Shown: positions 17,820-62,606, counted from the first letter of the stretch. The stretch: DNA of 64,000 nt from Parcubacteria group bacterium (GCA_012514175.1 JAAZAU010000012.1:110897-174896); one strand, 5' to 3'. Made by a program: numbers and translations. The notes: generated from the sequence alone by a model not told the origin.

Positions 17820-18479
17820 ATGAACGAACTAGTTATTTTTGATGTAGATGGAACTATTTTAAAAGGACAGAGTCAAAAATTGTTTCTAAACTACATGTTT
17901 AAAGAAAAGTACATTTCTTTATTTGGATTTATAAAACTGAATCTCTGGTTTATTTTTTATAAGTTAGATTTTATAAAAAATCCCTTACCCGCAATAAATT
18001 ATGCTTACAGTTTTTTGAAAGGTAAAAGCATTTCTGAAATAGAAAATTTGATAAATAATTTTTTCAATTCGATTTTAAAAAAATATATTTTTAAAGAAGT
18101 AATTGAGATCATAAATGACCATTTAAAAAATGGAAGAAAAGTTATCTTAGTATCAAATTCAGTTGATATTTTAATAAAAAAAATAGCTGAATATTTAAAC
18201 GTTTCTGATTTTATATCTACTAAATTAGAAGTTCAAAACGATAGATACACAGGAAAAATAATCGGAAGCATGATGTATGGTGAAAATAAAATTAAAGCCG
18301 TAGAACAATATGCGCAAAAGAATAATATTTCATTAAATAATTCTTGGTCTTATGCAGATCACTATTCTGACATACCTTTGTTATTGAAAACGACATATGT
18401 TTTTGTGGTTAACCCATCAAAAAAATTACAACAAATAGCTACAGAAAAAAATTGGCAAGTGTTACAATTTAACATATGA
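17820..18479 (+). CDS. HAD-IB family hydrolase (phosphoserine phosphatase-like)
   Basis: 219 aa with DxDGT motif I (VIFDVDGTILKG) and HAD-IB cap region. Preceded by a TGGTATAAT extended -10. Confidence 0.75.
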   Translation: MNELVIFDVDGTILKGQSQKLFLNYMFKEKYISLFGFIKLNLWFIFYKLDFIKNPLPAINYAYSFLKGKSISEIENLINNFFNSILKKYIFKEVIEIINDHLKNGRKVILVSNSVDILIKKIAEYLNVSDFISTKLEVQNDRYTGKIIGSMMYGENKIKAVEQYAQKNNISLNNSWSYADHYSDIPLLLKTTYVFVVNPSKKLQQIATEKNWQVLQFNI

Positions 18480-20065
18480 ATATATTCGGAATAACAAGCT
18501 TGATGATATTCTTTGCAGGAATTGGCTTTGGTCTTTTTTTGTATTCATCTGACAGAACTTCAAAACTTAATAAATCTTGGTTTATAGTTTCAATTTTTAC
18601 AGCCTTATGGGGGTTATCACTTTTCGGGGTCACTTCCGCGGACACAGCAAACATTGCTATGAAATGGCAATGTTTGCTTGATGTGTCCGCTACTTTTATT
18701 CCAGTCACATATTTTTATTTCGTTTGTCAACTATTAAAAATAAAAAGAAAAGCCTGCAATAGATGTATTTTAATTTTGGGAATTGTAATAGCAATATTTT
18801 CCTTAACTCCTTATCACAAAACAGAAATTACTACAAGATATGGTTTTTTTTGGGTTGATCCGGGGGAATATTACTTCTTGTTTTCATTTTTCTTTGGAAT
18901 TGTAACTCTCACATCACTTTTCTTGTTAATACAAGGATACTTCAAAAACAGAAAAGAACCCCTGTTTAGAGCTCAAATAAGAAACACATTAATAGCGGGC
19001 ATAATAGGTTTTGGAGGAGGTATCACCAATTTCTTTCCACAACATATAGATATATACCCATATGGTAATTATTTTATTTTACTTTATGTGTTTTTCATGA
19101 GTTATGGAGTATTGAAATACAAATTACTAAACACAAAAATAATATCTGCTCAATTGTTAGCGGGAGCAATTGTTTTAATATTTTTATTTGATCTATTAAG
19201 ATTTAATTACAATTTATATGATTGGATTGTAAAATTTATATTATTTATACTTGTTTTGTTATTTAGTGTTTTCTTAATAAGAAGCGTATTTAAAGAAATA
19301 GAGCAACGTGAACATATAAAAAACCTCGCTAAAGATTTACAGGAAGCAAATGAAAAATTGAAAGAATTGGATCAAATGAAATCAGAATTTATGTCCTTAG
19401 CCACACACCAAATTAGAGCGCCACTGACCGCTATCCGAGGTTATTCTTCAATGCTTCTAGAAGGGGATTTTGGAGCTTTGCCAGCAAAGGCTGCCGATTC
19501 TATAGAAGTCATAACCAAATCCAGTCAAAACCTGATTGATATCGTGAACGATTTCCTCAACATTTCCAGAATAGAGCAAGGGAGAATGGTTTATGAAAAA
19601 AGTGTTTTTGATTTAGTGAAATTGGTAAAAGAAGTAGCGGATGAGTTGAGACCTAACATTAAAGACGCTGGGTTAGATTTGAAAATCAATATAATACCAA
19701 ACAATCTTTTTATGGAAGTGAACGGTGATAGAAACAAATTGAGACAAGTTTTCAGCAATCTTTTAGACAACGCCACCAAATACACACTGAAAGGTAGTAT
19801 TGAAATTTCTATTACAGAAGAAAATTCTAAAGCAAAGATAGAAGTAAAAGACACCGGTGTTGGCATAGACCCAGCAGAAACCGAAAAACTTTTCGGAAAA
19901 TTTAACAGAGCCAAGGACGCAAACAAAACCAATGTTATTGGCACTGGAATCGGTCTTTATCTTGCTAAAAAAATAGTGGAAGCTCACGATGGTCGTATCC
20001 AGGTTTTTTCAGAAGGTTTAGATCATGGCACCACTTTTACCATTGAATTACCTTTGGAAAAATAA
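18476..20065 (+). CDS. sensor histidine kinase with multi-TM N-terminal sensor domain (orphan, no adjacent response regulator)
   Basis: 529 aa with about 7 predicted TM helices, then a coiled coil, H-box HQIRAPLTAIRGY, N-box and G-boxes (GTGIGLYLAKKIVEAHDGRI). Confidence 0.9.
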   Translation: MNIFGITSLMIFFAGIGFGLFLYSSDRTSKLNKSWFIVSIFTALWGLSLFGVTSADTANIAMKWQCLLDVSATFIPVTYFYFVCQLLKIKRKACNRCILILGIVIAIFSLTPYHKTEITTRYGFFWVDPGEYYFLFSFFFGIVTLTSLFLLIQGYFKNRKEPLFRAQIRNTLIAGIIGFGGGITNFFPQHIDIYPYGNYFILLYVFFMSYGVLKYKLLNTKIISAQLLAGAIVLIFLFDLLRFNYNLYDWIVKFILFILVLLFSVFLIRSVFKEIEQREHIKNLAKDLQEANEKLKELDQMKSEFMSLATHQIRAPLTAIRGYSSMLLEGDFGALPAKAADSIEVITKSSQNLIDIVNDFLNISRIEQGRMVYEKSVFDLVKLVKEVADELRPNIKDAGLDLKINIIPNNLFMEVNGDRNKLRQVFSNLLDNATKYTLKGSIEISITEENSKAKIEVKDTGVGIDPAETEKLFGKFNRAKDANKTNVIGTGIGLYLAKKIVEAHDGRIQVFSEGLDHGTTFTIELPLEK

Positions 20066-27247: not shown

Positions 27248-28516
27248 TCACTGACGAACAACGTAGACACGTTTTCCATCTGCGTCTAACGAGACATCAA
27301 TGAAAGCTACAATATACGGACGGCTATCGCCAGCACTTCCATGACTTTCACTTAAATCCTGTATGAAAGTTCTAGTTTTACCGTCGGATGTGCTAATTTG
27401 AATCTGAGCCGTTTCTGGGCCATAACCACGGTAATAATTCACGCCCACTTGATATGTGCCTAAACCATCGCTTCCACAAGGGACGTAATAATGTTCAGGT
27501 CCAAAACCGGTAACATCGTCCAAATCCAAATACCCGAAAGATCCAGTCATATTCCAATAATACACATGGTTACCGTCGGGCTCAAAGATGTGCAGATCCA
27601 CATCTGGTTCAGCTCCCCACGTAAGCGTAACGGTAATAGCTCCACTACCAAGATAGGTATATGGAAAGACCATATCCACGATTCTGGAAGCCAAATCTTC
27701 GTCAATCAATCTTCTGCTAACCAATTTACTTGAAAAATATGATTCAATAAACTGGTGGTTAGAAAAATCTCTATGATCCCCAAAAATACCTGGATCATTA
27801 TCCACATTGGAGTCAAGCACGGGAAACAGGGCTCTAAGCGCATTAATCACTCGGTCGTCATGGGCAGTGTAATAGGTGCTATCGCCATAAAGCAACTTTG
27901 CTGGCGAAGCCACTCCAATCATACCGATGCTTTGGGGAAACTCATTTGACAGAGCTGCCATCGCGTCATTAGCAAACATATTGCCTTGACTATGAGCGAC
28001 CAACAAAACTCTTTTACCTTCCAAAAGATCAGTCTCATATTTTTGGATGAGAGCCGAAGAGTTAACTTCGGCAGTAATCCTAGCGGCCAAAAATTCCTCA
28101 ATAGTGAGAATAATCGGTTGAGCCTCAGGTGGAAAAAGAAGCTGGACGTTTCGCAAACTCATATACATCGCAAAATAAACTTCAGGTGAAGTTCGCGAAA
28201 CCTGTGGAGCGTTGATTTCAACTATCTTTTGACCGATAACCTCAATAACATCCCGAACTTTGTCCACGTGATAGTTGTAAGCTAATTTGAACTCAAAAAC
28301 TTGATCTGGGTAGATAGTTTTGAGAGTTTCTGCATATGCTTTTACAAGCGCAACTCTACCCATCTCCGCTTGGTCTACCGTGTTCCAAACACCATTAACA
28401 AAATAGATCGCAGTGGTTTTAGCGTTGGAACAAAAATCCACTGATGTTTGTCCTGTGTTAGGACAAACGGCAAGCAAAGCAAAAGCGAAAACACCACAAA
28501 GAAGTTTAACTTTCAC
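27248..28516 (-). CDS. secreted alpha/beta-hydrolase (lipase/esterase-like) with C-terminal beta-rich domain
   Basis: 422 aa with signal/lipoprotein-like N-terminus MKVKLLCGVFAFALLAVC and nucleophile elbow LLVAHSQGN (cutinase/lipase-like xHSQG). C-terminal ~130 aa is a separate Gly/Tyr-rich domain. G+C is visibly higher than neighbours. Confidence 0.7.
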   Translation of the reverse strand: MKVKLLCGVFAFALLAVCPNTGQTSVDFCSNAKTTAIYFVNGVWNTVDQAEMGRVALVKAYAETLKTIYPDQVFEFKLAYNYHVDKVRDVIEVIGQKIVEINAPQVSRTSPEVYFAMYMSLRNVQLLFPPEAQPIILTIEEFLAARITAEVNSSALIQKYETDLLEGKRVLLVAHSQGNMFANDAMAALSNEFPQSIGMIGVASPAKLLYGDSTYYTAHDDRVINALRALFPVLDSNVDNDPGIFGDHRDFSNHQFIESYFSSKLVSRRLIDEDLASRIVDMVFPYTYLGSGAITVTLTWGAEPDVDLHIFEPDGNHVYYWNMTGSFGYLDLDDVTGFGPEHYYVPCGSDGLGTYQVGVNYYRGYGPETAQIQISTSDGKTRTFIQDLSESHGSAGDSRPYIVAFIDVSLDADGKRVYVVRQ

Positions 28517-28539: not shown

Positions 28540-29061
28540 TTATTCGCAGGGATTTTCTTCTTGGTCAGAACCGTAAAAACCACCACTAAGCAACGCGTTG
28601 AAATTTTGGTAGGCTTTGTTTCGGTTAGGATCACCTTTGAGCATTTCCACTTCCAAAAGCGATGATTCTTCATACATACCCTCTATGCTACCAGTTCTCT
28701 CAAACAAACAATAATTACCTTTACTGATAGCAGCTCTACCCGCTTGAGCAGCACTGTCATCTCCAGCATTGCCAGCGTAAACACCGGTTTGCAAAGCTTT
28801 GGCTTTTTGTCTTAGCGCAGACTGCATAACCGCGCTGTCTGGGTATCGGTCTACAATATATTTATCAAGATCATCCCAAACTCCGTTAGCGTCATCGTCA
28901 TAACCAAAACCATCGTAAGTGCTCTGCGAGGGATTGTTGGTGCCACCAGTATTGGTCGTTTTGGTGTTAGTGGCTTTTTTAGATCCACCAAAACCACAAC
29001 CCAATAAAACAATGCTCAACAAAAGCACGATCGGCAAACAAATAAGCAACGGTTTTTTCAT
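28540..29061 (-). CDS. small secreted lipoprotein, paralog A of a tandem pair
   Basis: 173 aa with lipobox LLGC. Shares YDGFGYDDDANGVWDDLDKYIVDRYPD...LQTGVYAG..DDSAAQAGRAAISK..EESSLLEVEMLKGDPNRNKAYQNFNALLSGGFYGSDQ-ENPCE with the next gene. Stretches of >100 nt are near-identical at DNA level. Confidence 0.6.
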   Translation of the reverse strand: MKKPLLICLPIVLLLSIVLLGCGFGGSKKATNTKTTNTGGTNNPSQSTYDGFGYDDDANGVWDDLDKYIVDRYPDSAVMQSALRQKAKALQTGVYAGNAGDDSAAQAGRAAISKGNYCLFERTGSIEGMYEESSLLEVEMLKGDPNRNKAYQNFNALLSGGFYGSDQEENPCE

Positions 29062-29137: not shown

Positions 29138-29641
29138 TTAAAATGCAGGTGTGAGAGGTTCGCAGGGATTTTCTTTCTGGTCAGAGCCGTAAAAACCACC
29201 ACTAAGCAACGCGTTGAAATTTTGGTAGGCTTTGTTTCGGTTAGGATCACCTTTGAGCATTTCCACTTCCAAAAGCGATGATTCTTCATCAAACCTCCTG
29301 ATGTCACCATCAGTTCTTTCAAGTAAACAATAAAGGGATTTGCTTATGGCAGCTCTACCCGCTTGAGCAGCACTGTCATCTCTAGCACTACCAGCGTAAA
29401 CACCAGTTTGCAAAGCTTTAGCCATTTGCTTCAACGTGGCCTGCATAACCGCGTTGTCTGGGTATCGGTCTACAATATATTTATCAAGATCATCCCAAAC
29501 TCCGTTAGCGTCATCGTCATAACCAAAACCATCGTAAGTGCCAAGTTGAGAAGAATTTTTAGACCCATCAAAATTATAAATCAAAAAAATAACACCTAGT
29601 AAAAACAAAATTGATAAACAAACGAACACAATTTTTTTCAT
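29138..29641 (-). CDS. small secreted/membrane-anchored protein, paralog B of the tandem pair
   Basis: 167 aa with signal-anchor N-terminus. Shares long near-identical nucleotide blocks with 28540..29061. Confidence 0.6.
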   Translation of the reverse strand: MKKIVFVCLSILFLLGVIFLIYNFDGSKNSSQLGTYDGFGYDDDANGVWDDLDKYIVDRYPDNAVMQATLKQMAKALQTGVYAGSARDDSAAQAGRAAISKSLYCLLERTDGDIRRFDEESSLLEVEMLKGDPNRNKAYQNFNALLSGGFYGSDQKENPCEPLTPAF

Positions 29642-41512: not shown

Positions 41513-41986
41513 TTACCTATTGATTGCCAAATCTGTATATTCGGAATAGGCGACTGTTTTGGTCCAACATTTAGAAGAGGAGCTCCAAGGTTTGACGCCA
41601 TACTTCTCAAAGAGATATCTAGCGTAAGCTGTGTTCCCTTCTAGGGTGAGGATATCAAATCCTAATTTTTCCGAATCTTCACTGTGATAGTATTCGTTGA
41701 TTTGCATTACTCCCCTGTCAAGATTGTTTACTTCACCACGCAACACATTTCCATTTTTGTCATATTGACGGAAACGAGATTCACATCTAGCAACTTCAAT
41801 CATAATCGGAATATCTGAAAAGTAACTTCTCACATATTCCTCAACAGTCATATTTCTTTCAACTACTTCTTTCTTCGCCTCACTTGGCAAAACATTTTTC
41901 GTTTGTATAACTTCCGGTGTTATAGCAGGAGCAAGAGATGATCCATTAAAACCTATAACCGTTGAAGCCAACATCACGAATCCCAA
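41513..41986 (-). CDS. lytic transglycosylase-like (SLT/lysozyme-like) protein
   Basis: 157 aa with ARCESRFRQYD...GVMQINE fitting the SLT catalytic E-S and GLMQ motifs. N-terminus and start codon uncertain. An in-frame TTG lies 2 codons upstream. Confidence 0.6.
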   Translation of the reverse strand: MGFVMLASTVIGFNGSSLAPAITPEVIQTKNVLPSEAKKEVVERNMTVEEYVRSYFSDIPIMIEVARCESRFRQYDKNGNVLRGEVNNLDRGVMQINEYYHSEDSEKLGFDILTLEGNTAYARYLFEKYGVKPWSSSSKCWTKTVAYSEYTDLAINR

Positions 41987-42300
41987 AGCGGTAGTTTGGA
42001 AAATAAGCCGATTGTTTAATTTTAATCTACTCTAATCCCCTAGCCTACCTTTGATAGACTTTGCATTTTTAGTTTGGGATTAAAATAGTAGAGATACATT
42101 TTCAGAAAACCTCAAGCGCGAACCTTAACTCTGTTTTAGAGTATAAATTTATACTTGAGCCAAAAAGTTTCTCTATATTACCTTCTTGATTTGTGAAAAC
42201 CTTGTCAAAAAAGCAAAAATCCAGTATTACTGGACCTACATATATATTAGCATTTTTTGCTCTTGCTGTCAAGAGTAAAATGTGTTCAAATTTGTGTTCC

Positions 42301-42327
42301 AAAAATGGCTCTATTGAGCCATTTTTT
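42301..42327 (-). terminator. terminator after the 441-aa secreted protein gene
   Basis: AAAAATGGCTC-TATT-GAGCCATTTTT symmetric hairpin. Confidence 0.65.
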
Positions 42328-42358
42328 AGATAATTTTTAAAGAAAATCCGCTCAAAAA

Positions 42359-43684
42359 TTAGAATTCTTTGTAGTTTGGATTGATCGCAAAATTAGCGTG
42401 AACAGTCTTGTTGCCCGTAGCAGTTAGGGTGCAAGTCCCTCCAGAACCATCAGCTTCCTTTGTGGAACCCCCATCGCAAACAGTTGAATCACTCCAACCC
42501 ACAAATATGCGACCAGTAGACGGTGTAGCGGTTAAAGTAATCTCTTCACCTTCTTCAAATTTAGCAGATTGAGAAGAACACCCTTCCCCGCATTTAATAC
42601 CATCAGGGCTACTAACCACAACTCCCTGACCAGATTTTATAACAGTAATATCAAATTCCTGATTAAGAATTTTGATTAAAACATTCGCGTAAGAATTGGT
42701 GCCTGCCGGACTACAATTTATTTCATAAGTGGTATTTACCACTGGACTGACAGAGAAAGTTCTTGAATCATTAGGATAATTCAAAGACGAACCATAACCA
42801 GTAACAGTGCAGTTGGTAGCGTTTTGATACGAAAAAGTGATATTGGCGCTATTACCTTTCTTTATTTCTGTCGGGCTGGCACTTATATTAACAGTTGCAG
42901 CAACTGGAGTGGCATAATTAGCTATCACAGTCTTATTAGAATTCACTTTAACGTTACAAGTGCGACCAGTTACAGAATTACAACCATGCCAAGCGGAAAA
43001 GGTTTGACCTCCCACAGTAGCAGGAGCGGTCACAGAAACATCGCTATTATGATAAACGTTGTAAGTTCTTTGGAATGGTGTTGAGCCGTTTGCATTACCC
43101 GCCACATCAGCTGGTGACACAACCATCGTTACCCCGCTTGCAGGATTATTGGAACTTATTGAAAGAGTGCGGAATAACCCGCCGACACTAACACCAGAGA
43201 AATCAACCCAACCAACAACACTTGAACCCCAAGCAAAACCAGAAAAACTACCCGTTTCAGTATTAAAAGAAACAGAATTAGAATGCCCATCTAGACGAAT
43301 CCAGCCATCCCAACCATCAGTCCGGCTAGTCATTGAAGAACAATTACCAGAAGCGGTTCCCGCGCAAGCCCGAATCCAACCGGTAACTTTTCCCGTAGAG
43401 AAATCAATAAGAGCATTGCCCCCTACCCCTCCCGGAAAAGAACTGAGACCACCAAATTTTACCCAGCCAATATTTTCCGACCAGGCATAACCGCCCAATA
43501 CACCATTGACATCATCAAGATAGACTCCACCATACGCTGGAGTCATATCTATCCAACCGATAGTTTCCGACCAGGCATAACCGGAAACACTAGTCACAGC
43601 AGAAAGTGCTCGAGCAGGAGCTATATTGAAAAACAAAACGGATACCATTATCAAACAGAGAAATATCAAAGTCTTATTTTTCAT
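42359..43684 (-). CDS. secreted Trp-rich repeat protein with C-terminal divergent InlB B-repeat domain
   Basis: 441 aa with signal peptide. At least 4 copies of G[YF]AW[SG]x2-3[IV]GW[IV]x[FM] (GYAWSETIGWIDM, GYAWSENIGWVKFGG, GFAWGSSVVGWVDFSG). C-terminus FVGWSDSTVCDGG...CTLTATGNKTVHANFAINPNYKEF. Confidence 0.65.
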   Translation of the reverse strand: MKNKTLIFLCLIMVSVLFFNIAPARALSAVTSVSGYAWSETIGWIDMTPAYGGVYLDDVNGVLGGYAWSENIGWVKFGGLSSFPGGVGGNALIDFSTGKVTGWIRACAGTASGNCSSMTSRTDGWDGWIRLDGHSNSVSFNTETGSFSGFAWGSSVVGWVDFSGVSVGGLFRTLSISSNNPASGVTMVVSPADVAGNANGSTPFQRTYNVYHNSDVSVTAPATVGGQTFSAWHGCNSVTGRTCNVKVNSNKTVIANYATPVAATVNISASPTEIKKGNSANITFSYQNATNCTVTGYGSSLNYPNDSRTFSVSPVVNTTYEINCSPAGTNSYANVLIKILNQEFDITVIKSGQGVVVSSPDGIKCGEGCSSQSAKFEEGEEITLTATPSTGRIFVGWSDSTVCDGGSTKEADGSGGTCTLTATGNKTVHANFAINPNYKEF

Positions 43685-43702
43685 AATTTTATATAACTAT
43701 TA

Positions 43703-45043
43703 TTATTGTTTCCAAATATAAACATAACCATCCCCACCTGCACCAGCAGTACATTGATCATGAGACGCACCACCACCGCCACCACCACTTACACCACTTG
43801 TAGCGTTTGTAGTATTACTACAATTTCCACTCCCTCCTCTTCTTGTGCCACCTCTACCACCAAATGGACCACCGCCATTACCTCCAGGGACAGAGTCTTC
43901 GTCGTCGGTATTTTTAATAGGCATTCCGCCAAGACCTCCGGCTATTCTGATTGTATCTGCAGTCGCACTTTTTCCAACACCTCCCCCAAAGCCACAAGAA
44001 CAAACGGTGCTAGCGCACAAAGTATGCCCACCATTATCTATATAACACCCGCCTTTACCACCATAAGCCACAAGAGAAGTGCCCCCTATGCTCATAGTAG
44101 TGTTACCACCATTTCCTCCTGTTTGAAATGTGGCAGATCCTCCATAACCTCCAACTCCCACATTACCATTTACAGTAGTTGCAGTATCGAGAGTAACTCT
44201 ATGATAAACTGTTTCCCCTTCTCCACCACCACCGCCAGATTCGGGGTTGCTATCGTTCCAGCTAGCACCACCACCACCACCACCAGCACCTTTCATTTCT
44301 ATAATATAAGTTCCTGGCTCCAAATTAGCCGAAAAATTACCAGAACCAGTTTGACTGAAAGCTAAACTTTCTCCCAAAAACGGTCCGGAATTGGCAGAAC
44401 CACCAGGCGCTTGCCAACTAGCGTTACCAGACGCATCAGAAGTCAAAACCTTCCCAACACCAGGAGAACCTCCGGAGATTTTCACTGTGCCATTTACATC
44501 AAGATTAGCAGAAGGATTTTGGACACCAATACCAACCTTACCGTTAAAATAAGTATTGTTTGTGTTTACATCCATACGAACTATATAGTCGTCGTGATTA
44601 CGACCTATCCAAAGAAAATTTATTGTTTCTGCGGAGTAACCATGGCCACCATAGCCTCCAAGCAGTGCAGAACCATCAGAAGTAGAGAAGCCAAATCTTC
44701 TAGACCAACCTCCACCAGGAGCAGCCGAAATAGCAACACCATAAGCAGGTTGATTATATGAAATTCTCACAAGATTTTGAACATTCAAAACTCCATTTAG
44801 AACAAAACCTCCATTAACTGTCAAAACGTTAGCACCAGCAACACCCATATTCAAAATTTTATTACCAGCAAAAATTTGTTTGTTGGTGCTGATGTTGATT
44901 GGCGCTGAAACGTTATTGCCAGGAGGTTCCGCCGTCGGCGCAGTCCAGCTGTAAGCTATTCCTACAAAACCCGTAACTGCAAAGCAAACAGCAATAGTTA
45001 TGATGATTTGTTTTATATTCCGCATATTTTTTAAATTAATCAA
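43703..45043 (-). CDS. secreted glycine-rich protein
   Basis: 446 aa with signal peptide. N-terminal WTAPTAEPPGNNVSAPIN motif and long poly-Gly tracts (GGGGGGASW, GGGGGEGE, GGNGGGPFGGRGG). Confidence 0.65.
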   Translation of the reverse strand: MINLKNMRNIKQIIITIAVCFAVTGFVGIAYSWTAPTAEPPGNNVSAPINISTNKQIFAGNKILNMGVAGANVLTVNGGFVLNGVLNVQNLVRISYNQPAYGVAISAAPGGGWSRRFGFSTSDGSALLGGYGGHGYSAETINFLWIGRNHDDYIVRMDVNTNNTYFNGKVGIGVQNPSANLDVNGTVKISGGSPGVGKVLTSDASGNASWQAPGGSANSGPFLGESLAFSQTGSGNFSANLEPGTYIIEMKGAGGGGGGASWNDSNPESGGGGGEGETVYHRVTLDTATTVNGNVGVGGYGGSATFQTGGNGGNTTMSIGGTSLVAYGGKGGCYIDNGGHTLCASTVCSCGFGGGVGKSATADTIRIAGGLGGMPIKNTDDEDSVPGGNGGGPFGGRGGTRRGGSGNCSNTTNATSGVSGGGGGGASHDQCTAGAGGDGYVYIWKQ

Positions 45044-45068
45044 TAATTAAATAACAAATTTATTAATT

Positions 45069-45395
45069 TTATAAATTTTCCATTTCTTTAGTTTGTTCAG
45101 AAACAAGATCTCCTTCTGCTTCATTTCCTTCATTTTCTTTTTCTAGATTATTCATTTCATTCATTTGAGCATCCAAGGTTTCTTCAGACGCAGGCTGAAA
45201 ATCGTTGCTGTTTACTATTTTTTCCATTTCTCTCAATTGCCCTGAAATAATCTCCTCTTCTGTTGGAGATTTGGCTTTGTTATAAAAATATATAGAAAGA
45301 ATAATTACTGCTATCAATAACAAAACACCCGCAACCCACCAGATAAGTTTAGATTTGGAAAAGCCAGACATATTTTTGTATTTTGATTTTGACAT
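45069..45395 (-). CDS. small membrane-anchored acidic protein
   Basis: 108 aa with one TM helix and E/N-rich tail. Confidence 0.45.
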   Translation of the reverse strand: MSKSKYKNMSGFSKSKLIWWVAGVLLLIAVIILSIYFYNKAKSPTEEEIISGQLREMEKIVNSNDFQPASEETLDAQMNEMNNLEKENEGNEAEGDLVSEQTKEMENL

Positions 45396-45449
45396 ATTTA
45401 TGTATTGTATATAAAAAATTTAGATTTTGATAGATTTATTTGTAGATAA

Positions 45450-46493
45450 CTAAAATTCTTTATAATTTGGGTCAACAATAAAGTTGGCTTTTACGTTTTT
45501 AGCGTCATTCATTATAAGGTTGCAGAGTCCCAAACCGGTGCAATCACCACTCCAACCGGCAAATTTTCTTCCTGGATTTGGTCTAGCAAACAAAGTAATT
45601 TTTGTATCTGGTAAATAATCAGAAATACAAGCGCCTCCGCAGTTAATACCGGGCTGACTTGGATCAACAAGCGTGCTAAAAACCAAACCTTGACCACTTT
45701 TTTCTACTTTCAAACTAAAAGGAGTTGGAGGTGAAGAAACATTTATAGACACGTTATCATTTATTGGTAAACCATTACTACCCCAACAGGTTAAAGAATA
45801 AGAATAAGAACCTGGACCGATTAGATTACCAGTTTCAAAACTACCAGAATCAGCGCCATCAGTAGCGTCAAATCCTGGGAAACTAGGAAAAGTAGCCGTG
45901 CAAGAATTTGCATTACTGTAATTCCAATAAACCGTAGTGCCAGTATTATTACTTAAGTTTTCGTTAAGAGCGGACATATTGACGGTGGCAGGAGTAGGTT
46001 CGGGAGTAGGACCTGTACCCGGACCTGAGCCTGGGTCTGTGCCTGGATCTGGATTTTCTGGGTCTGGTGTTGGACCTGGATCAATACAGTCTGCATCTGA
46101 ACCACACATATTCTCAGTAGCGGTGCCAGTGCTGTCTATTTGGCAAGATTGATTTTGACAAATTAAATAATTATTGGCTGGTTCTGGCTCAACACACTGA
46201 CATTCTCTACCTTTATCGCACTTAATAGAAGTAGTAAATTCATTAGAAAGTATGCACTGCTCCCAACCAAGCCAACTGCAGGTGGCTACTTTGCCAACTT
46301 CACAATCACAGGTGTTGAAAACCGGTCTTACACAATCGTGTCTTCCGTCCCTTCCGTTATAACAAGCTTCACCGCCAACATACGTCCCTTCTGGAGTAAA
46401 TTCTGGCAGACCGCGACAAACCAGAGCGTCGGCGCAAGAAGGTAAAAATAAAATAAAAGCAGCGATTATAGAAAATTTTAAAAATAACTTCAT
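45450..46493 (-). CDS. secreted cysteine-rich protein with Pro/Thr linker and C-terminal divergent InlB B-repeat domain
   Basis: 347 aa with signal peptide and about 20 Cys in the first 140 aa. PTPDPENPDPGTDPGSGPGTGPTPEPTP linker. C-terminus FAGWSGDCTGLGLCNLIMNDAKNVKANFIVDPNYKEF. Confidence 0.65.
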   Translation of the reverse strand: MKLFLKFSIIAAFILFLPSCADALVCRGLPEFTPEGTYVGGEACYNGRDGRHDCVRPVFNTCDCEVGKVATCSWLGWEQCILSNEFTTSIKCDKGRECQCVEPEPANNYLICQNQSCQIDSTGTATENMCGSDADCIDPGPTPDPENPDPGTDPGSGPGTGPTPEPTPATVNMSALNENLSNNTGTTVYWNYSNANSCTATFPSFPGFDATDGADSGSFETGNLIGPGSYSYSLTCWGSNGLPINDNVSINVSSPPTPFSLKVEKSGQGLVFSTLVDPSQPGINCGGACISDYLPDTKITLFARPNPGRKFAGWSGDCTGLGLCNLIMNDAKNVKANFIVDPNYKEF

Positions 46494-47062
46494 ATTGATT
46501 TAGGTAAAACTTGTATTGAAACCTCAACGAGATCAGTTTCTAATTGTGCAAGATTAATTTGGATTTGATATTTGGTCCCTTCTATTTCAATCATCCCAAA
46601 CTTTTCACCATAACTAGAATACAAAACATTGCTATCTTGGAACGAACTGAAGAAATCTGAAAAAATTTGAGCTAATTCCCCATTTTTATTATATAAAAAA
46701 CTATAACCTGCTCCACCCTTAAAATCTAATTTTAAGTATCTCGCTTCGTTTACTGAATCGGTCGGCACAAAAATAACTAAATTTGAAGGCAAATCTTCTT
46801 TTTTAATTTCTGTCAATGAATCAGCTTTAGGAATAGCTATTGTAGATTTTTGAGAAATAACTAAACGTTCTTTAACAAGAGCTTCGTCTAATTTTCTTTC
46901 ATTTAAAACAGGCTCTTCTGTTATAAAAGATGATTCGTTAACTGCTTTGTAGACAAAAAGAGAAACAAGACCCAAAAACAAAAAAATCCCCACCACAAAC
47001 AAAAGAACTAGAAGTTTCTTGTCAGTGTTGGTGTTAGTATTGGGTTGAAACTCGTCTGGCAT
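46490..47062 (-). CDS. hypothetical N-terminally membrane-anchored protein
   Basis: 190 aa with one TM helix after a short cytoplasmic N-terminus. Overlaps the upstream gene by 4 bp (operon). Confidence 0.55.
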   Translation of the reverse strand: MPDEFQPNTNTNTDKKLLVLLFVVGIFLFLGLVSLFVYKAVNESSFITEEPVLNERKLDEALVKERLVISQKSTIAIPKADSLTEIKKEDLPSNLVIFVPTDSVNEARYLKLDFKGGAGYSFLYNKNGELAQIFSDFFSSFQDSNVLYSSYGEKFGMIEIEGTKYQIQINLAQLETDLVEVSIQVLPKSI

Positions 47063-47140
47063 TATGGATATATTTTAACATGTTCAAAATTTACCAAACA
47101 AAAAACTGTGTATAAGACATTTATTGAAAAACCGATGTTT

Positions 47141-47833
47141 TTACTTTTTTAAAGCCTCGTCTATAACTGTTTTAAAAGCTTCATAAGATTGAGCGCCAAC
47201 CAATTTTTGACCGTTGATAATAAAAACTGGAGTGCCATTTACTCCGACGTTTTGTCCATCTTTGAAATCAGCCGAAACCACCTTGCTAGTTGACCCCGAA
47301 TCTAAACAAGAATTGAATTGTGCCATATTAAGACCGAGCTCTTCAGCGTATTTTTTTAGATCCGAAACAGCGAGACCGGTTCCATCGCCGTTACCATTTT
47401 TAAAGAGTAAATCGTGATAAGGCCAAAATTGACCTTGTTTGTTAGCACACTCCCCTGCCTCTGCTGATTTTTGAGCATTTGTATGACCTGGTAATGGAAA
47501 ATGACGAAAAATTATTTTGATTTTATCGGTATCAACATAATTAGTTTTAATCTTTTCAAAAGTCTCTTGCGTAAATTTTTTAGAATATGGACACTGAAAA
47601 TCAGAAAATATAAAAAGTTCCACTTTCCCTTTACCCATAGTGGGAGCATCTTTTCTGGCATTAACTTTAATAGTTTGAGTTGCGCTTTCATTTTCAACTT
47701 TCTCTTCTCCTCCTCCAAAAGAGAGCTTGCCAGCGCTAAAACCAATACTAACAGCAATAAAAACCGATCCCAATAAAATACTTATGGGGATCAATAAATC
47801 TTTAAATTTTATTTCATTTATATTCCAAAACAT
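47141..47833 (-). CDS. DsbA-like thioredoxin-fold protein with CXXS active site
   Basis: 230 aa with signal anchor. FSDFQCPYSKKF aligns with the DsbA/BdbD F-x-D-F-x-C-P-x-C motif, but the second Cys is Ser (TGT CCA TAT TCT read directly from the DNA). Confidence 0.75.
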   Translation of the reverse strand: MFWNINEIKFKDLLIPISILLGSVFIAVSIGFSAGKLSFGGGEEKVENESATQTIKVNARKDAPTMGKGKVELFIFSDFQCPYSKKFTQETFEKIKTNYVDTDKIKIIFRHFPLPGHTNAQKSAEAGECANKQGQFWPYHDLLFKNGNGDGTGLAVSDLKKYAEELGLNMAQFNSCLDSGSTSKVVSADFKDGQNVGVNGTPVFIINGQKLVGAQSYEAFKTVIDEALKK

Positions 47834-47883
47834 TTTTTTAATTTAATCTTTTTTCGTTGCGTTAGCAATAACATATTATAAAA

Positions 47884-48339
47884 TTATTTTAAACCTTTAC
47901 AGTTACTGGCTGGAGTATAACCAGCTTTGCGAGCTTCTTCAATTGAGCTAAAGGTAATGAGATTTTTAGCAGAAATTTGTTTAGCTCCAGCGCACCACGG
48001 ATAATGATATTTAGTGCCATTTTTTGAAGCCACCACAGCGCCAGCAACCATAGTGGAATTCATAGTAGTGTCAGGTTGTTCTACTCCCACCTGCCCTTGT
48101 TGACCAGAAAACGTTTTATCTAAAACCCCCTTCGTTTCCTCTTCTCCAGAAATTATTCTCACCGGCATTTTTTTATCTTGCAAACCAGAAATCCTACCCA
48201 AAGAAAAACCGATCACCGCCACCAAAATAATAATTAAAGGCACAAAATATTTACCTGTTAAAACAACTTCTATTTTAGACCTCCAACCTTCCGTTTTTAC
48301 CTCTTCAAACTCTTCTGTTTTGATATATTCTTCCTCCAT
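47884..48339 (-). CDS. hypothetical membrane-anchored protein with C-terminal Ada-like metal-binding-type motif
   Basis: 151 aa. C-terminal KYHYPWCAGAKQISAKNLITFSSIEEARKAGYTPASNC resembles the YHxPxC...F.S..EA..AGYRPC pattern of Ada N-terminal Zn domains but has only two Cys. Confidence 0.5.
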   Translation of the reverse strand: MEEEYIKTEEFEEVKTEGWRSKIEVVLTGKYFVPLIIILVAVIGFSLGRISGLQDKKMPVRIISGEEETKGVLDKTFSGQQGQVGVEQPDTTMNSTMVAGAVVASKNGTKYHYPWCAGAKQISAKNLITFSSIEEARKAGYTPASNCKGLK

Positions 48340-60884: not shown

Positions 60885-62606
60885 TCACTCTCTAAATATC
60901 ACTCCACTTTTGAAAATCGCTCCGCCTTTCAAAACTTTGTCCGCACTGGCTCCTGCTGTTGGAGTCTCACCTCCCCCTGCGACATATTCATCAGCACCTA
61001 TGTCCCATGCACTTCTTGTATCTCCATCAACATCATCTGTAAAAGTCCCAGACAAATCTTCACCAGATATTCCAAACAAACTCAAACCTGTGCCTTTAAG
61101 ATGAAAATCTTTATTTATATAATCTTCAAAATAATCTCCATAAGAAGTTAAACCAGTAGCGACTGTAGTCCCTACAGCAGTAGCATCAGAAGAAACATTC
61201 CTATCAGAAGATGCACTCCAATCAATGTCATAATCAATGTTGGTATTATTAAAAGAGATATTGTTTTTCGCAATTGAATATGCACCAATGTTACTCGCAG
61301 CCATACCATAATAATTGTTATATAAAGTATTATTATAATAATAACCATAACTACTAGAAGTCGTTTTACCTACCTTAATTCCGTATGCATTGCTGTTATA
61401 ATTAAATCCATAAATTATATTGTTATACACTAAAGCGTCGCTATAATCGGGTATTTCTACACCTACACCCGCCTTATATATACCTTTCAGTATATTATGA
61501 GAAAAGATTGGACTAGCGGATCCATAAGAAAAAAGAACACCATTACTCCAATAAGTAGCATTCGAATCTACACCCATTTGCAATCCTATGATTTTTGTAT
61601 AATCTGTATTCGCACCGACATTCAACACTCTAGTGTAACTAACTGAATCAGTATTTATTAGTCTATATTTTGTATCATCCCAAACCCCATCATGTCTATC
61701 ACTTCCAGCAGGATTGGTCCAAATTTTTATATAATGAGTAGAGTTAGTTGTATAACCTGTGACATCTACACTTGTAGTATCAGCTGTACCATCACTGGCT
61801 TCGCATTCAAAAGTAAGTTGTTCATCAGAAACAGTAAGATCTCTGGCTTCGGCAACAACAGCAGCGTTAAGAGAAGCATAATCACCTGTGCCTCCTGTAT
61901 CCACCGTAACGACGGTCGCAGTTAAAGCATAAGCAGTCGGTCTCATTATATCCACAAACTTTTGCCAATTAGTTTTTTCGGGAGGAACATAATCAGCCAT
62001 TGAAACGACGGCTTTTTGATCGGATTTCTTCTCTTTAATGATATTTAAATCAATAACCGGCAATCTCTTGATATCTTCTAGCTTTGAGACTTTTTCGATT
62101 TCATTTGCGTTAAGGATAGTTGTGTAGTCAATGCCCTTTTTTCTCATTTTTAAAGTTTTTTCAAATTCAATTTCCTCACCTTCAACGACTTCTCTTTCTG
62201 TAACCACTTCTGAAGACATAAGATCTGCTATTTGCCCCTTAGTCAGTTTAGCTGGATAATACAAAGGTAGAAGTTTGACTGTCTCTAGTCTACTCAGTGG
62301 ATTTCTATCTCCAAATTGATTACAAAGTTTGGTCCCGTCTCTTATTTCTACAATATCTCCCGCTTCATATCTACCTTCGCCTACTCCTGTCGCTACTGGT
62401 TTGACAAGGAGTATCATCCCGTCTTTATAGTCGCAAGCTTTAAAATCTGGATCAGTTGGGACAATGAAATTCCAAACTGTTTGAACGATATCATTTGGAA
62501 GATTGAGTTTTTGACCGACAGCAGTCTGAGAGAAAATGATAAAACCAGTGATGAGGAAGATGACAACGAGTCCGATTTTAGTTGATTTATGAAGTTTAGT
62601 GAGCAT
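60885..62606 (-). CDS. surface protein with right-handed parallel beta-helix repeats
   Basis: 573 aa with signal anchor. VDTGGTGDYASLNAAV start of a pectate-lyase-like beta-helix and repeated NN-I/V motifs (NNIIYGFNYNSNAYGIKVG, NNTLYNNYYGMAASNIG, KNNISFNNTNIDYDI). Confidence 0.6.
   Translation of the reverse strand: MLTKLHKSTKIGLVVIFLITGFIIFSQTAVGQKLNLPNDIVQTVWNFIVPTDPDFKACDYKDGMILLVKPVATGVGEGRYEAGDIVEIRDGTKLCNQFGDRNPLSRLETVKLLPLYYPAKLTKGQIADLMSSEVVTEREVVEGEEIEFEKTLKMRKKGIDYTTILNANEIEKVSKLEDIKRLPVIDLNIIKEKKSDQKAVVSMADYVPPEKTNWQKFVDIMRPTAYALTATVVTVDTGGTGDYASLNAAVVAEARDLTVSDEQLTFECEASDGTADTTSVDVTGYTTNSTHYIKIWTNPAGSDRHDGVWDDTKYRLINTDSVSYTRVLNVGANTDYTKIIGLQMGVDSNATYWSNGVLFSYGSASPIFSHNILKGIYKAGVGVEIPDYSDALVYNNIIYGFNYNSNAYGIKVGKTTSSSYGYYYNNTLYNNYYGMAASNIGAYSIAKNNISFNNTNIDYDIDWSASSDRNVSSDATAVGTTVATGLTSYGDYFEDYINKDFHLKGTGLSLFGISGEDLSGTFTDDVDGDTRSAWDIGADEYVAGGGETPTAGASADKVLKGGAIFKSGVIFRE

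Follow-up and report, generated by a model that had tools for sequence, protein, structure and literature searches.

Do eight neighbouring genes on one strand of a Parcubacterial chromosome encode a single surface apparatus, or is only a part of them held together by evolution? The question is raised by a gene cluster on the minus strand at positions 41,513-48,339 of a 64,000-nucleotide stretch from Parcubacteria group bacterium (GCA_012514175.1, JAAZAU010000012.1:110897-174896), which was analysed as a whole and is referred to below as the window. A preliminary description had interpreted the cluster, whose genes we denote g1 to g8 in the direction of transcription, as one operon for a cell-surface appendage or adhesion apparatus equipped with a wall-opening lytic enzyme and a dedicated thioredoxin-fold helper. 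Our check of the open reading frames (ORFs) confirmed all eight on the minus strand, in the order and at the positions given there. As to the apparatus, only g5, g6 and g7 are evolutionarily conserved as a group, and g1, g2, g3 and g4 are not co-conserved with them. The reading that we favour, and to which we would give an even chance of being correct, is that g5-g6-g7 represent a lineage-wide Parcubacterial surface module, in which a barrel in g7 would dock a peptide of g6 and a C-terminal tail and a membrane anchor would provide attachment, the remaining genes being lineage-specific neighbours. The module probably builds a cell-surface fibre or adhesin from domains that have no description in databases. 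In other words, the surface or adhesion interpretation fits three of the genes, which recur as a unit and in some loci are joined to pilus operons, and the eight together are not one co-conserved apparatus. The issue reaches beyond a single genome, as Patescibacteria may account for about one quarter (~1/4) of bacterial diversity and their cultivated members live attached to other microbes. We know of almost nothing that has been established about their host-contact proteins beyond type IV pili.

The evidence for a module comes from comparison with other genomes. The hallmark of g7 is a tryptophan-rich domain (Trp domain) of ~140 residues in its N-terminal part, for which we obtained 564 matches among 8000 scored candidates from a set of 5.8 billion proteins and at least 545 stretches in GTDB species representatives. 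Its C-terminal partners include FN3, PKD, CARDB and immunoglobulin-like (Ig-like) domains as well as InlB repeats. We retained 80 loci from other Patescibacteria species (labelled L007, L013 and so on), called their ORFs and searched them with all proteins of the cluster and its flanks. All organism-specific titles of these loci refer to Patescibacteria, several other records being titled only "uncultured bacterium"; the lineages named are Kaiser-, Yonath-, Taylor-, Nomura-, Nealson-, Niyogi-, Portnoy-, Harrison- and Terrybacteria, Paceibacteria and Minisyncoccia. The Trp-domain family is abundant and, among the matches examined, found in Patescibacteria only. Around the gene for the Trp-domain protein (Trp gene), genes encoding the N-terminus typical of g6 (g6N genes) are concentrated. 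After iteration we found 76 of them, 75 on the strand of the Trp gene and 41 within 500 bp of it, their density being 0.53 per kilobase (kb) near the Trp gene versus 0.012 per kb at a distance of 6-10 kb. A g6N gene is present within 1.5 kb of the Trp gene in 38 of the 80 loci, and in some cases the two alternate in tandem (Trp-g6N-Trp-g6N in L025 and g6N-Trp-g6N-Trp in L027). The third component is a small acidic anchor resembling g5, which by a property-based test abuts the module on the same strand in 27 of the 80 loci. Such proteins constitute 15% of module-adjacent genes versus 1.8% of those located 2 kb or more from the module (odds ratio 9.7, p 7e-12). The full set of three parts was seen in 16 loci, and in 49 the Trp gene has one partner or both; the linkage persists in lineages whose g7 proteins are only 30-50% identical. 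Among close relatives, usable contigs are those of L007 and L008 (g7 identity 71% and 41%, respectively), which keep, in this order, a g6-like gene, g7, g8, an 87-residue ORF and the genes for an M23 peptidase and GltX; both contigs end inside g6, and the synteny with close relatives covers the part from g6 onward in the direction of transcription.

Might such a pattern arise from unrelated exoproteins in a secretome-rich stretch, their recurrent adjacency being a product of tandem duplication and shuffling? In the window, g1-g7 are seven co-directional minus-strand genes (42359-48339), each with a hydrophobic export segment at the N-terminus (best 15-residue Kyte-Doolittle mean 2.6-3.2). Signal peptides that look cleavable are found in g4 (...ADA/L), g6 (...AYS/W) and g7 (...ARA/L), and g1, g2, g3 and g5 resemble signal anchors. 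N-terminal hydrophobic segments are also present in 17 of the 55 other genes of the window (31%), and at this frequency seven exported genes in a row are expected with a probability of 0.31^7, or ~3e-4 per start position and ~0.015 per window; thus the run is modestly above chance. Coincidence is further favoured by the varying order and copy number of the module genes, by the 31 of 80 loci in which both partners are missing and by the wider neighbourhood of Trp genes, which is mostly housekeeping (EF-G/Tu, NusA, S10, trigger factor). However, it would leave unexplained the ~40-fold enrichment of g6N genes within 500 bp, their nearly uniform strand (75/76), the adjacency of a third, unrelated component at the p-value given above, and the persistence of all this where g7 proteins share only 30-50% of their residues. 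We consider coincidence quite improbable.

The central protein of the proposed module, g7 (42359..43684, minus strand), is Sec-secreted and consists of the Trp-rich barrel, a linker, an Ig-like domain, an InlB B-repeat and a tail. Its earlier characterization as a Trp-repeat and InlB-repeat protein was accurate, as it has five GW-containing repeats and an InlB B-repeat (PF18998, 37.7 bits at a cut-off of 23.6). AlphaFold predicts residues 30-170 (43175-43597) to form an eight-stranded beta-barrel. In the full-length model the predicted local distance difference test score (pLDDT) is ~90 for these residues and for the Ig-like domain (264-340), and confidence is low in the linker and the tail (tail pLDDT 48); a model of the barrel only is all-beta, with pLDDT 84.5 and a predicted template modelling score (pTM) of 0.80. 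The Trp repeats correspond to four or five hairpins of the form G-[YFW]-A-W-S-x-N-I-G-W-I-x-F. In the full-length alignment six Trp residues are invariant and five more are conserved in at least 90% of the sequences, and a nearly invariant insert in the barrel, R-A-C-A-G-T-x2-G-x-C-x5-R-x-D-G-W-D-G-W-I, carries the conserved Cys107-Cys115 pair. No sequence match to the Trp domain was found in Pfam, NCBIfam or PDB, and PDB sequence searches with g6, g7 and g8 returned nothing significant. In the literature and libraries searched we found no description of the Trp domain, the terminal motifs discussed below, the three-gene linkage or the juxtaposition with pilB-pilC. In a Foldseek search the barrel matched HphA/hemophilin with a probability of 0.97-0.99 and a template modelling score (TM) of 0.47-0.49. 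Compared with hemophilin/HphA hemophores and the surface lipoproteins TbpB, HpuA and fHbp, the identity of the barrel at this TM is 9-17%; unlike them, the g7 domain is predicted to be built of hairpin repeats with a disulfide-bonded insert (A-C-A-G-T-x2-G-x-C), and the organisms that carry it, monoderm-like Patescibacteria, have neither Slam nor an outer membrane. The model reads as a generic up-and-down eight-stranded soluble barrel rather than as a member of the hemophilin family.

The proposed binding partner, g6 (43703..45043, minus strand), appears as a Sec-secreted fibre-like protein whose signal peptide ends in ...IAYS. It is indeed Gly-rich, as described previously: Gly makes up 22.4% of its residues, and the C-terminal Gly_rich_2 domain (PF21722, residues 234-443, 43715-44344) scores 36.3 bits against a cut-off of 24.3. 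The signal-peptidase site directly precedes a motif, WTAPTAEPPGNNVSAPIN in g6 (44864-44947), of the general form W-T-x-P-x3-P-P-x2-N-x3-P-[IL]-N-V-G-x3-Q-x-K-x-G-x-L, in the alignment of which P12, P16, P24 and Q32 are invariant. This mature N-terminal motif is new to the databases searched. A search of the set of 5.8 billion proteins with a 56-residue profile of it scored 107 candidates and yielded 10 short fragments, which say nothing about the size of the family. The middle part of g6 contains another motif (residues 160-225, NGKVGIG...GKVLTSDASGNASWQ, 44369-44566), a fibre motif of ~60 residues that is common to proteins with Peptidase_S74, C1q, collagen or Gly_rich_2 heads and that is carried by members of the Candidate Phyla Radiation (CPR), by Bacteroidota and by a phage. 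Since the N-terminal motif is present in only 6 of 65 fibre-motif matches but in all module-linked paralogues, it can serve as a marker of the module.

The fibre motif brings up the possibility that the locus is a domesticated phage cassette of tail-fibre or receptor-binding proteins, either a prophage remnant or something akin to a tailocin. The motif is indeed found in endosialidase-chaperone proteins and in a structural protein of Rhodococcus phage E3, and g7 matches PHROG 2155 (virion structural protein) with an E-value of 1.9e-5. Like trimeric tail-fibre-like proteins with S74, C1q, collagen or Gly_rich_2 heads, g6 combines the fibre motif with modular, variable C-terminal heads; in contrast to them, it has a Sec signal and the N-terminal motif, and its gene is chromosomal, without phage context. 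No phage genes are present within +/-10 kb. The cluster is embedded in the core genome, with rpmA (L27), rplI (L9) and an S41/PDZ protease gene on one side and genes for the M23 peptidase, GltX, MurG, FtsW and MraY on the other; its GC content (0.39-0.41 vs ~0.36) is slightly high, not anomalous, and the chromosomal synteny is conserved. The Trp domain has no confirmed match in the 2.9 million contigs of IMG/VR, and fold matches in BFVD are of low TM and limited to the Ig repeat. Both the PHROG and the BFVD matches of g7 trace to Ig-like/InlB-type repeats, not to the Trp barrel, and were rejected as signs of phage origin. On this balance a phage cassette seems highly improbable.

The extreme C-terminus of g7 is formed by a tail, NPNYKEF (42362-42382), and a nearly identical one, DPNYKEF (45453-45473), closes g4, the secreted 347-residue protein encoded at 45450..46493 on the minus strand. 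The latter was correctly described as a Cys-rich InlB-repeat protein: it has 21 Cys residues, 15 of them in a Cys-rich head (residues 26-136), followed by an Ig-like domain, a divergent InlB B-repeat (PF18998, 31.4 bits at a cut-off of 23.6) and the tail. As its C-terminal half (residues 166-347) is paralogous to residues 260-441 of g7 (33% identity, E 2e-17), g4 combines an equivalent stalk and tail with a head of another, Cys-rich kind. The g4-like matches in the 80 loci reflect no more than the InlB and Ig-like domains held in common. Among 199 non-redundant Trp-family proteins, the tail has Glu at position -2 in 159, Pro at -6 in 105, one of I/F/V/Y/W at -4 in 137 and I or F at -1 in 101; a penultimate Glu is seen in only 5% of neighbouring genes. 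The same tail occurs in a few Cys-rich secreted proteins that lack the Trp domain, after the same type of Ig-like domain. This consensus, P-x-hydrophobic-x-E-x, is new to the databases searched, and no NCBIfam model matches it. Like the LPXTG/sortase, PEP-CTERM, GlyGly-CTERM and MYXO-CTERM signals, it is short and conserved and forms the very end of many otherwise dissimilar exported proteins within a single clade. However, both g4 and g7 terminate in PNYKEF-COOH with nothing after the motif, as do 159 of the 199 homologues, so that the tripartite architecture of a sorting signal was not found: tail-bearing proteins have no transmembrane helix or basic cluster and end one residue after the conserved Glu. 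The lack of such a helix excludes a signal of the sortase or exosortase type. Clustering of neighbouring genes in the 80 loci did not reveal a candidate tail-processing enzyme co-located with the module. In g7, an internal tail-like sequence, K-I-L-N-Q-E-F, is seen at the end of the Ig-like domain before the InlB repeat (42656-42670, ~residues 339-347), a position that points to a shorter ancestor ending there, to which the InlB repeat was later added together with a second tail.

The smallest member of the triad, g5 (45069..45395, minus strand), has 108 residues, an N-terminal anchor, an acidic repeat tail and no Cys. Its relatives by sequence adjoin the module in L009 and L065. A jackhmmer search started from g5 drifted to unrelated transmembrane and coiled-coil proteins, and the property-based test mentioned above was used instead.

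How might the three proteins work together? We propose that the g7 barrel docks the conserved mature N-terminal peptide of g6. This idea follows from the observations that the barrel and the g6 N-terminal peptide are the most conserved parts, that their genes form 1:1 tandem pairs and that heads and stalks vary. The g7 tail would then keep the assembly on the cell surface, perhaps by way of the g5 anchor, and the variable fibre heads of g6 would contact the host or substrate; in some lineages the tail might attach to a type IV pilus instead. A number of observations weigh against the proposed module. The Trp gene has neither partner nearby in 31 of the 80 loci, although some of these contigs are short. 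In other loci the g5-like component (65-150 residues, N-anchored, Cys-free, acidic) was recognized mostly by properties, its sequence similarity being weak. The fold matches of the barrel are generic and imply no specific ligand. The tail could be just the conserved end of an Ig-like domain, as the internal LNQEF of g7 lies in or just after a predicted beta-strand (331-340). Finally, g1-g7 are probably co-transcribed, and the basis for this in the window is gene spacing. With these points considered, we still prefer the g5-g6-g7 module, and a much stronger version of it may also be formulated: an undescribed, Parcubacteria-wide surface fibre system in which the N-terminal motif binds the barrel, the tail is an anchoring or sorting signal that works without a transmembrane helix, mechanical coupling to the type IV pilus machine serves display or secretion in a sizeable minority of lineages, and the whole would be a main host-contact device of these episymbionts. 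Taken in full, this version is unlikely. In any case, the module offers testable candidates, namely the barrel-peptide interaction, the C-terminal signal lacking a transmembrane helix and the pilB-pilC link, and its families could help to annotate hundreds, or more, of the genes now labelled "hypothetical".

The link to pili deserves separate consideration, since it also supports a different explanation, in which g6 and g7 are accessories of the type IV pilus, their terminal peptides docking on tip or minor pilins and extension of the pilus bringing about the display or secretion of the proteins. When the ORFs around the Trp genes of the 80 loci were clustered without bias, PilB emerged in 11 loci and PilC in 8, alongside housekeeping genes. 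By direct search pilB was found in 14 loci, 12 of which also have a g6N gene; pilC follows in 11 loci. Most of the pilB loci have 22-592 bp between pilB and the module gene closest to it. Downstream sequence of 2.5 kb or more was available for 58 loci, and in 9 of these pilB begins on the strand of the module and within 2 kb of its last gene, which is above the ~4% estimated by chance. Prepilin-like genes are present in ~8 of the 80 loci, in one case (L072) 24 bp after the Trp gene. Known pilus partners offer a parallel: PilY1 joins the minor-pilin tip complex, and TcpF and CofJ are exported by type IVb pili and bind minor pilins through N-terminal peptides. Similarly, the module proteins have type I signal peptides, their genes lie beside pilus operons in some lineages, and the short conserved terminal segments of g6- and g7-type proteins, that is, the mature N-terminus of g6 and the disordered tail of g7, resemble docking peptides. 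However, the likeness to PilY1, TcpF and CofJ is one of gene context and general knowledge, no relationship in sequence or fold having been sought or found, and most loci are not beside pilus genes: pilB, pilC and prepilin genes are lacking from the surroundings in 66 of the 80 loci as well as in the window. In the window specifically, pilB and pilC were found neither within +/-10 kb of the cluster nor among the remaining large ORFs, a class III signal peptide (G/[FM][TS]L[IL]E) occurs in no frame of the 64 kb, and no prepilin signal is present in the cluster proteins. In addition, type IV pilus genes are common in CPR bacteria, so that some adjacency is expected. A role as a pilus accessory is accordingly a possibility to be kept in mind, if a doubtful one. 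Consistent with the preliminary description, none of the large cluster proteins matches a pilin or S-layer family in Pfam or NCBIfam, and no SLH or other S-layer anchoring or lattice domain was detected in the eight proteins at E <= 0.1 in the same databases.

If the surface module consists of g5, g6 and g7, what is the role of their neighbours? According to the initial interpretation, all eight genes would form one dedicated appendage apparatus, with an SLT-type wall opener (g8) and a DsbA helper specific for g4. The genes are co-directional and closely spaced: from g1 to g7 the spacers are 50, 78, -4 (the g3/g4 overlap), 54, 25 and 18 bp, with a gap of 372 bp before g8. The exported cluster proteins together hold ~40 Cys residues, Cys making up 6.05% of g4 and 2.49% of g7 against 0.73% in other genes of the window, and g8 adjoins g7 in L007, L008 and L013. 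A further argument in favour is that MdbA is needed for pilin folding in Actinobacteria, as cited in PMC6744442. On the other hand, homologues of g1, g2, g3 and g8 are missing from 79-80 of the 80 loci; they are essentially confined to the same species and close relatives, the exceptions being L013, which combines L27, a g1-like gene, an SLT-like gene and a Trp gene, and a single unlinked DsbA gene in L053. Four other Cys-rich proteins with the tail were located, and none of their loci was seen to contain a DsbA-like gene. Moreover, g8 lies past a terminator, has its own promoter and leader and lacks a convincing signal peptide here. Together with the properties of g2 described below, this leaves the eight-gene apparatus with little probability.

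The thioredoxin-fold protein g2 (47141..47833, minus strand) is membrane-anchored and DsbA/MdbA-like, as first described, and the CXXS site noted then is CPYS (residues 81-84, 47582-47593). It matches Thioredoxin_4 (E 7e-32, 111 bits, cut-off 23.2) and DSBA (E 3.5e-22, 79.5 bits), and has further Cys residues at positions 129 and 176. Its best relatives in PDB (E ~1e-17) are 4pwp/4pwo, deposited as DsbA, and 7uno/7unn, deposited as thioredoxin domain-containing, all of which we take to be MdbA-type proteins. The Ser in the active site is not a sequencing error, since CPYS is identical in four independent assemblies. The catalytic CxxC is absent from g2, while its relatives in L053 and L090 have CPFC and CPHC. 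Among 453 related domain copies (from the 150 best representatives), CxxC accounts for 86% and CxxS for 6%; this representative-library search was dominated by multi-domain tandem DsbA proteins and was used only for the active-site tabulation. Most of the CxxS copies belong to proteins in which 2-6 DsbA-like domains stand in tandem, CxxC copies among them. With MdbA/BdbD-type DsbA proteins and the CPR family fam000318, g2 shares the Thioredoxin_4/DSBA fold with an inserted helical domain, the N-terminal anchor, a T-P (cis-Pro loop) that aligns with 7uno and 4pwp, and a second Cys pair in the helical domain; it differs in having CPYS instead of CxxC and in being a lone CxxS domain, which elsewhere is usually fused to CxxC copies. 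A monothiol CxxS site forms mixed disulfides only and does not make a stand-alone disulfide oxidase; Eug1p and ERp44 are precedents of monothiol proteins acting in isomerization or retention. The MdbA-like oxidoreductase family fam000318 is enriched across CPR bacteria (Meheust et al. 2019, PMC6744442), with CxxC in 89% of its members and VKOR as a frequent and the commonest conserved partner (PMC6744442). In the window, neither VKOR nor DsbB is encoded within +/-10 kb of the cluster. Only one of the 80 loci has a g2-like gene near a g7 homologue, at a distance of 6 kb and in the opposite orientation, and a scan of metagenome contigs with g2 gave two short contigs (1.1 and 1.9 kb) without gene context. 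As the family is CPR-wide and CPYS is a minority site, g2 is best viewed as a member-like variant of a general CPR folding factor. It probably assists the ~40 exported Cys residues of the cluster in an isomerase- or holdase-like manner, without being dedicated to them. The tempting reading of a nearby DsbA-like gene as a dedicated folding factor is corrected by these observations.

The two other membrane proteins of the upstream part are lineage-specific. The first gene of the cluster, g1 (47884..48339, minus strand), codes for a bitopic membrane protein of 151 residues with an acidic N-terminus and a transmembrane segment at ~33-50, and is divergent from rpmA (L27). Its C-terminal motif is weakly recognizable: the NCBIfam sunset model NF051437 scores 16.7 bits (cut-off 27) and Ada_Zn_binding 17.5 bits (E 0.004, cut-off 23). 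The g1-like ORF in L013 (8678-9019) lies between L27 and the SLT-like gene. A sunset-like motif, K-Y-H-Y-P-W-C...G-Y-x-P-x3-C, is found divergent from rpmA both here and in this distant Paceibacteria locus; NCBIfam also holds a sunset-domain variant of ribosomal protein L20. The second protein, g3 (46490..47062, minus strand; 190 residues), is N-anchored and Cys-free and its gene overlaps g4 by 4 bp; it has no family match in Pfam or NCBIfam and no homologue in the 80 loci. The earlier assignment of g1, g3 and g5 as anchor proteins is borne out by their strongly hydrophobic N-terminal segments (Kyte-Doolittle mean 2.9-3.2).

At the other end, the unit g1-g7 is closed by an intrinsic-terminator-like hairpin with a U-run (42301..42327, minus strand; minimum free energy -17.2 kcal/mol, z -2.75), in agreement with the terminator proposed after g7. 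The operon as originally drawn has to be shortened by one gene, as g1-g7 are the genes probably transcribed together and g8 (41513..41986, minus strand) lies behind this terminator with a conserved promoter and leader of its own. A promoter-like site, TTGACA-17-TAATAT with an upstream TG (42272-42244), is directly followed by a conserved hairpin and U-run (42237-42217) and then by ~200 nt of conserved leader, the promoter and leader together forming a conserved non-coding region at 41987..42272 (minus strand). The g7-g8 spacer (41987-42358) exceeds the coding DNA around it in conservation, being 77% identical to that of L008 over 266 nt, compared with 65% for g7, 71% for g8 and 70% for M23. 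RNAalifold predicts helices in the leader with nine doubly changed pairs, a result based on three sequences only. The spacer is non-coding, since orthologous spacers differ by 1- and 2-nt indels; a 66-residue ORF within it (42102-42302) was rejected as a coding sequence on these grounds. Neither the gathering threshold nor the E-value mode of the Rfam search assigned the spacer to a family, and by nhmmer the element occurs only in this lineage. We consider it a candidate for a cis-regulatory leader, or else a small RNA, belonging to g8.

The product of g8, a protein of 157 residues, is lysozyme-like or SLT-like, albeit weakly. For the suggested relationship to transglycosylases, the SLT_3 match stays below its threshold (17 bits vs a cut-off of 27; two orthologues are likewise weak and the L013 orthologue has no match), but C68-E69-S70 and G92-V-M-Q-I-N97 are invariant in four orthologues, and we take C-E-S and G-L/V-M-Q to be the signature of SLT/family 1 lytic transglycosylases. 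Even with a profile of four sequences, no PDB sequence match was obtained. The claim that all eight proteins have a signal peptide or anchor applies to g1-g7 but fails for g8, whose best hydrophobic window reaches 1.45. Here and in close relatives the protein is without a convincing signal peptide, and in the orthologue of L013 the N-terminus is extended by a long hydrophobic stretch; the g8 start is mis-set, or else lineages differ in export. The linkage to g7 in L007, L008 and L013 amounts, outside close relatives, to one lineage only (L013). We regard g8 as a candidate separately regulated cell-wall hydrolase.

As for what is already on record, the proteins of the cluster are identical to GenBank entries NLE07567-NLE07573 (locus tags GX627_03080-03110), annotated as "hypothetical" except for one "DsbA family protein". 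The genes are deposited but undescribed; known kinds are represented by the thioredoxin protein and by the domains of the InlB, Gly-rich and fibre types. The same contig recurs in many ENA and Logan assemblies. The 64-kb window contains one tRNA, and no Rfam family was found in the cluster region.

Some observations concern the wider surroundings. Apart from pilus-linked cases, Trp-barrel modules tend to adjoin highly expressed translation and transcription genes, as is the case here with L27 and L9; EF-G/EF-Tu is a neighbour in 15 loci, NusA in 14, S10 in 11 and trigger factor in 10. The second commonest neighbour family is that of HisKA_7TM histidine kinases (27 ORFs in 17 loci, e.g. L017 and L021), and one such kinase is encoded in the window at 18476-20065, 22 kb from the cluster. 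Other surface-protein genes are present in the window as well. Two tandem paralogous genes on the minus strand (28540-29061 and 29138-29641) code for small, unannotated exported proteins sharing YDGFGYDDDANGVWDDLDKYIVDRYPD; one of the two has a lipobox-like LLGC, and the pair adjoins the gene for a 422-residue exported protein (27248-28516). Another small surface-protein pair is made up of an exported protein of 573 residues (60885-62606, minus strand), with a marginal match to DUF1565 (beta-helix; 20.6 bits vs a cut-off of 20.3), followed by an anchored protein of 185 residues.

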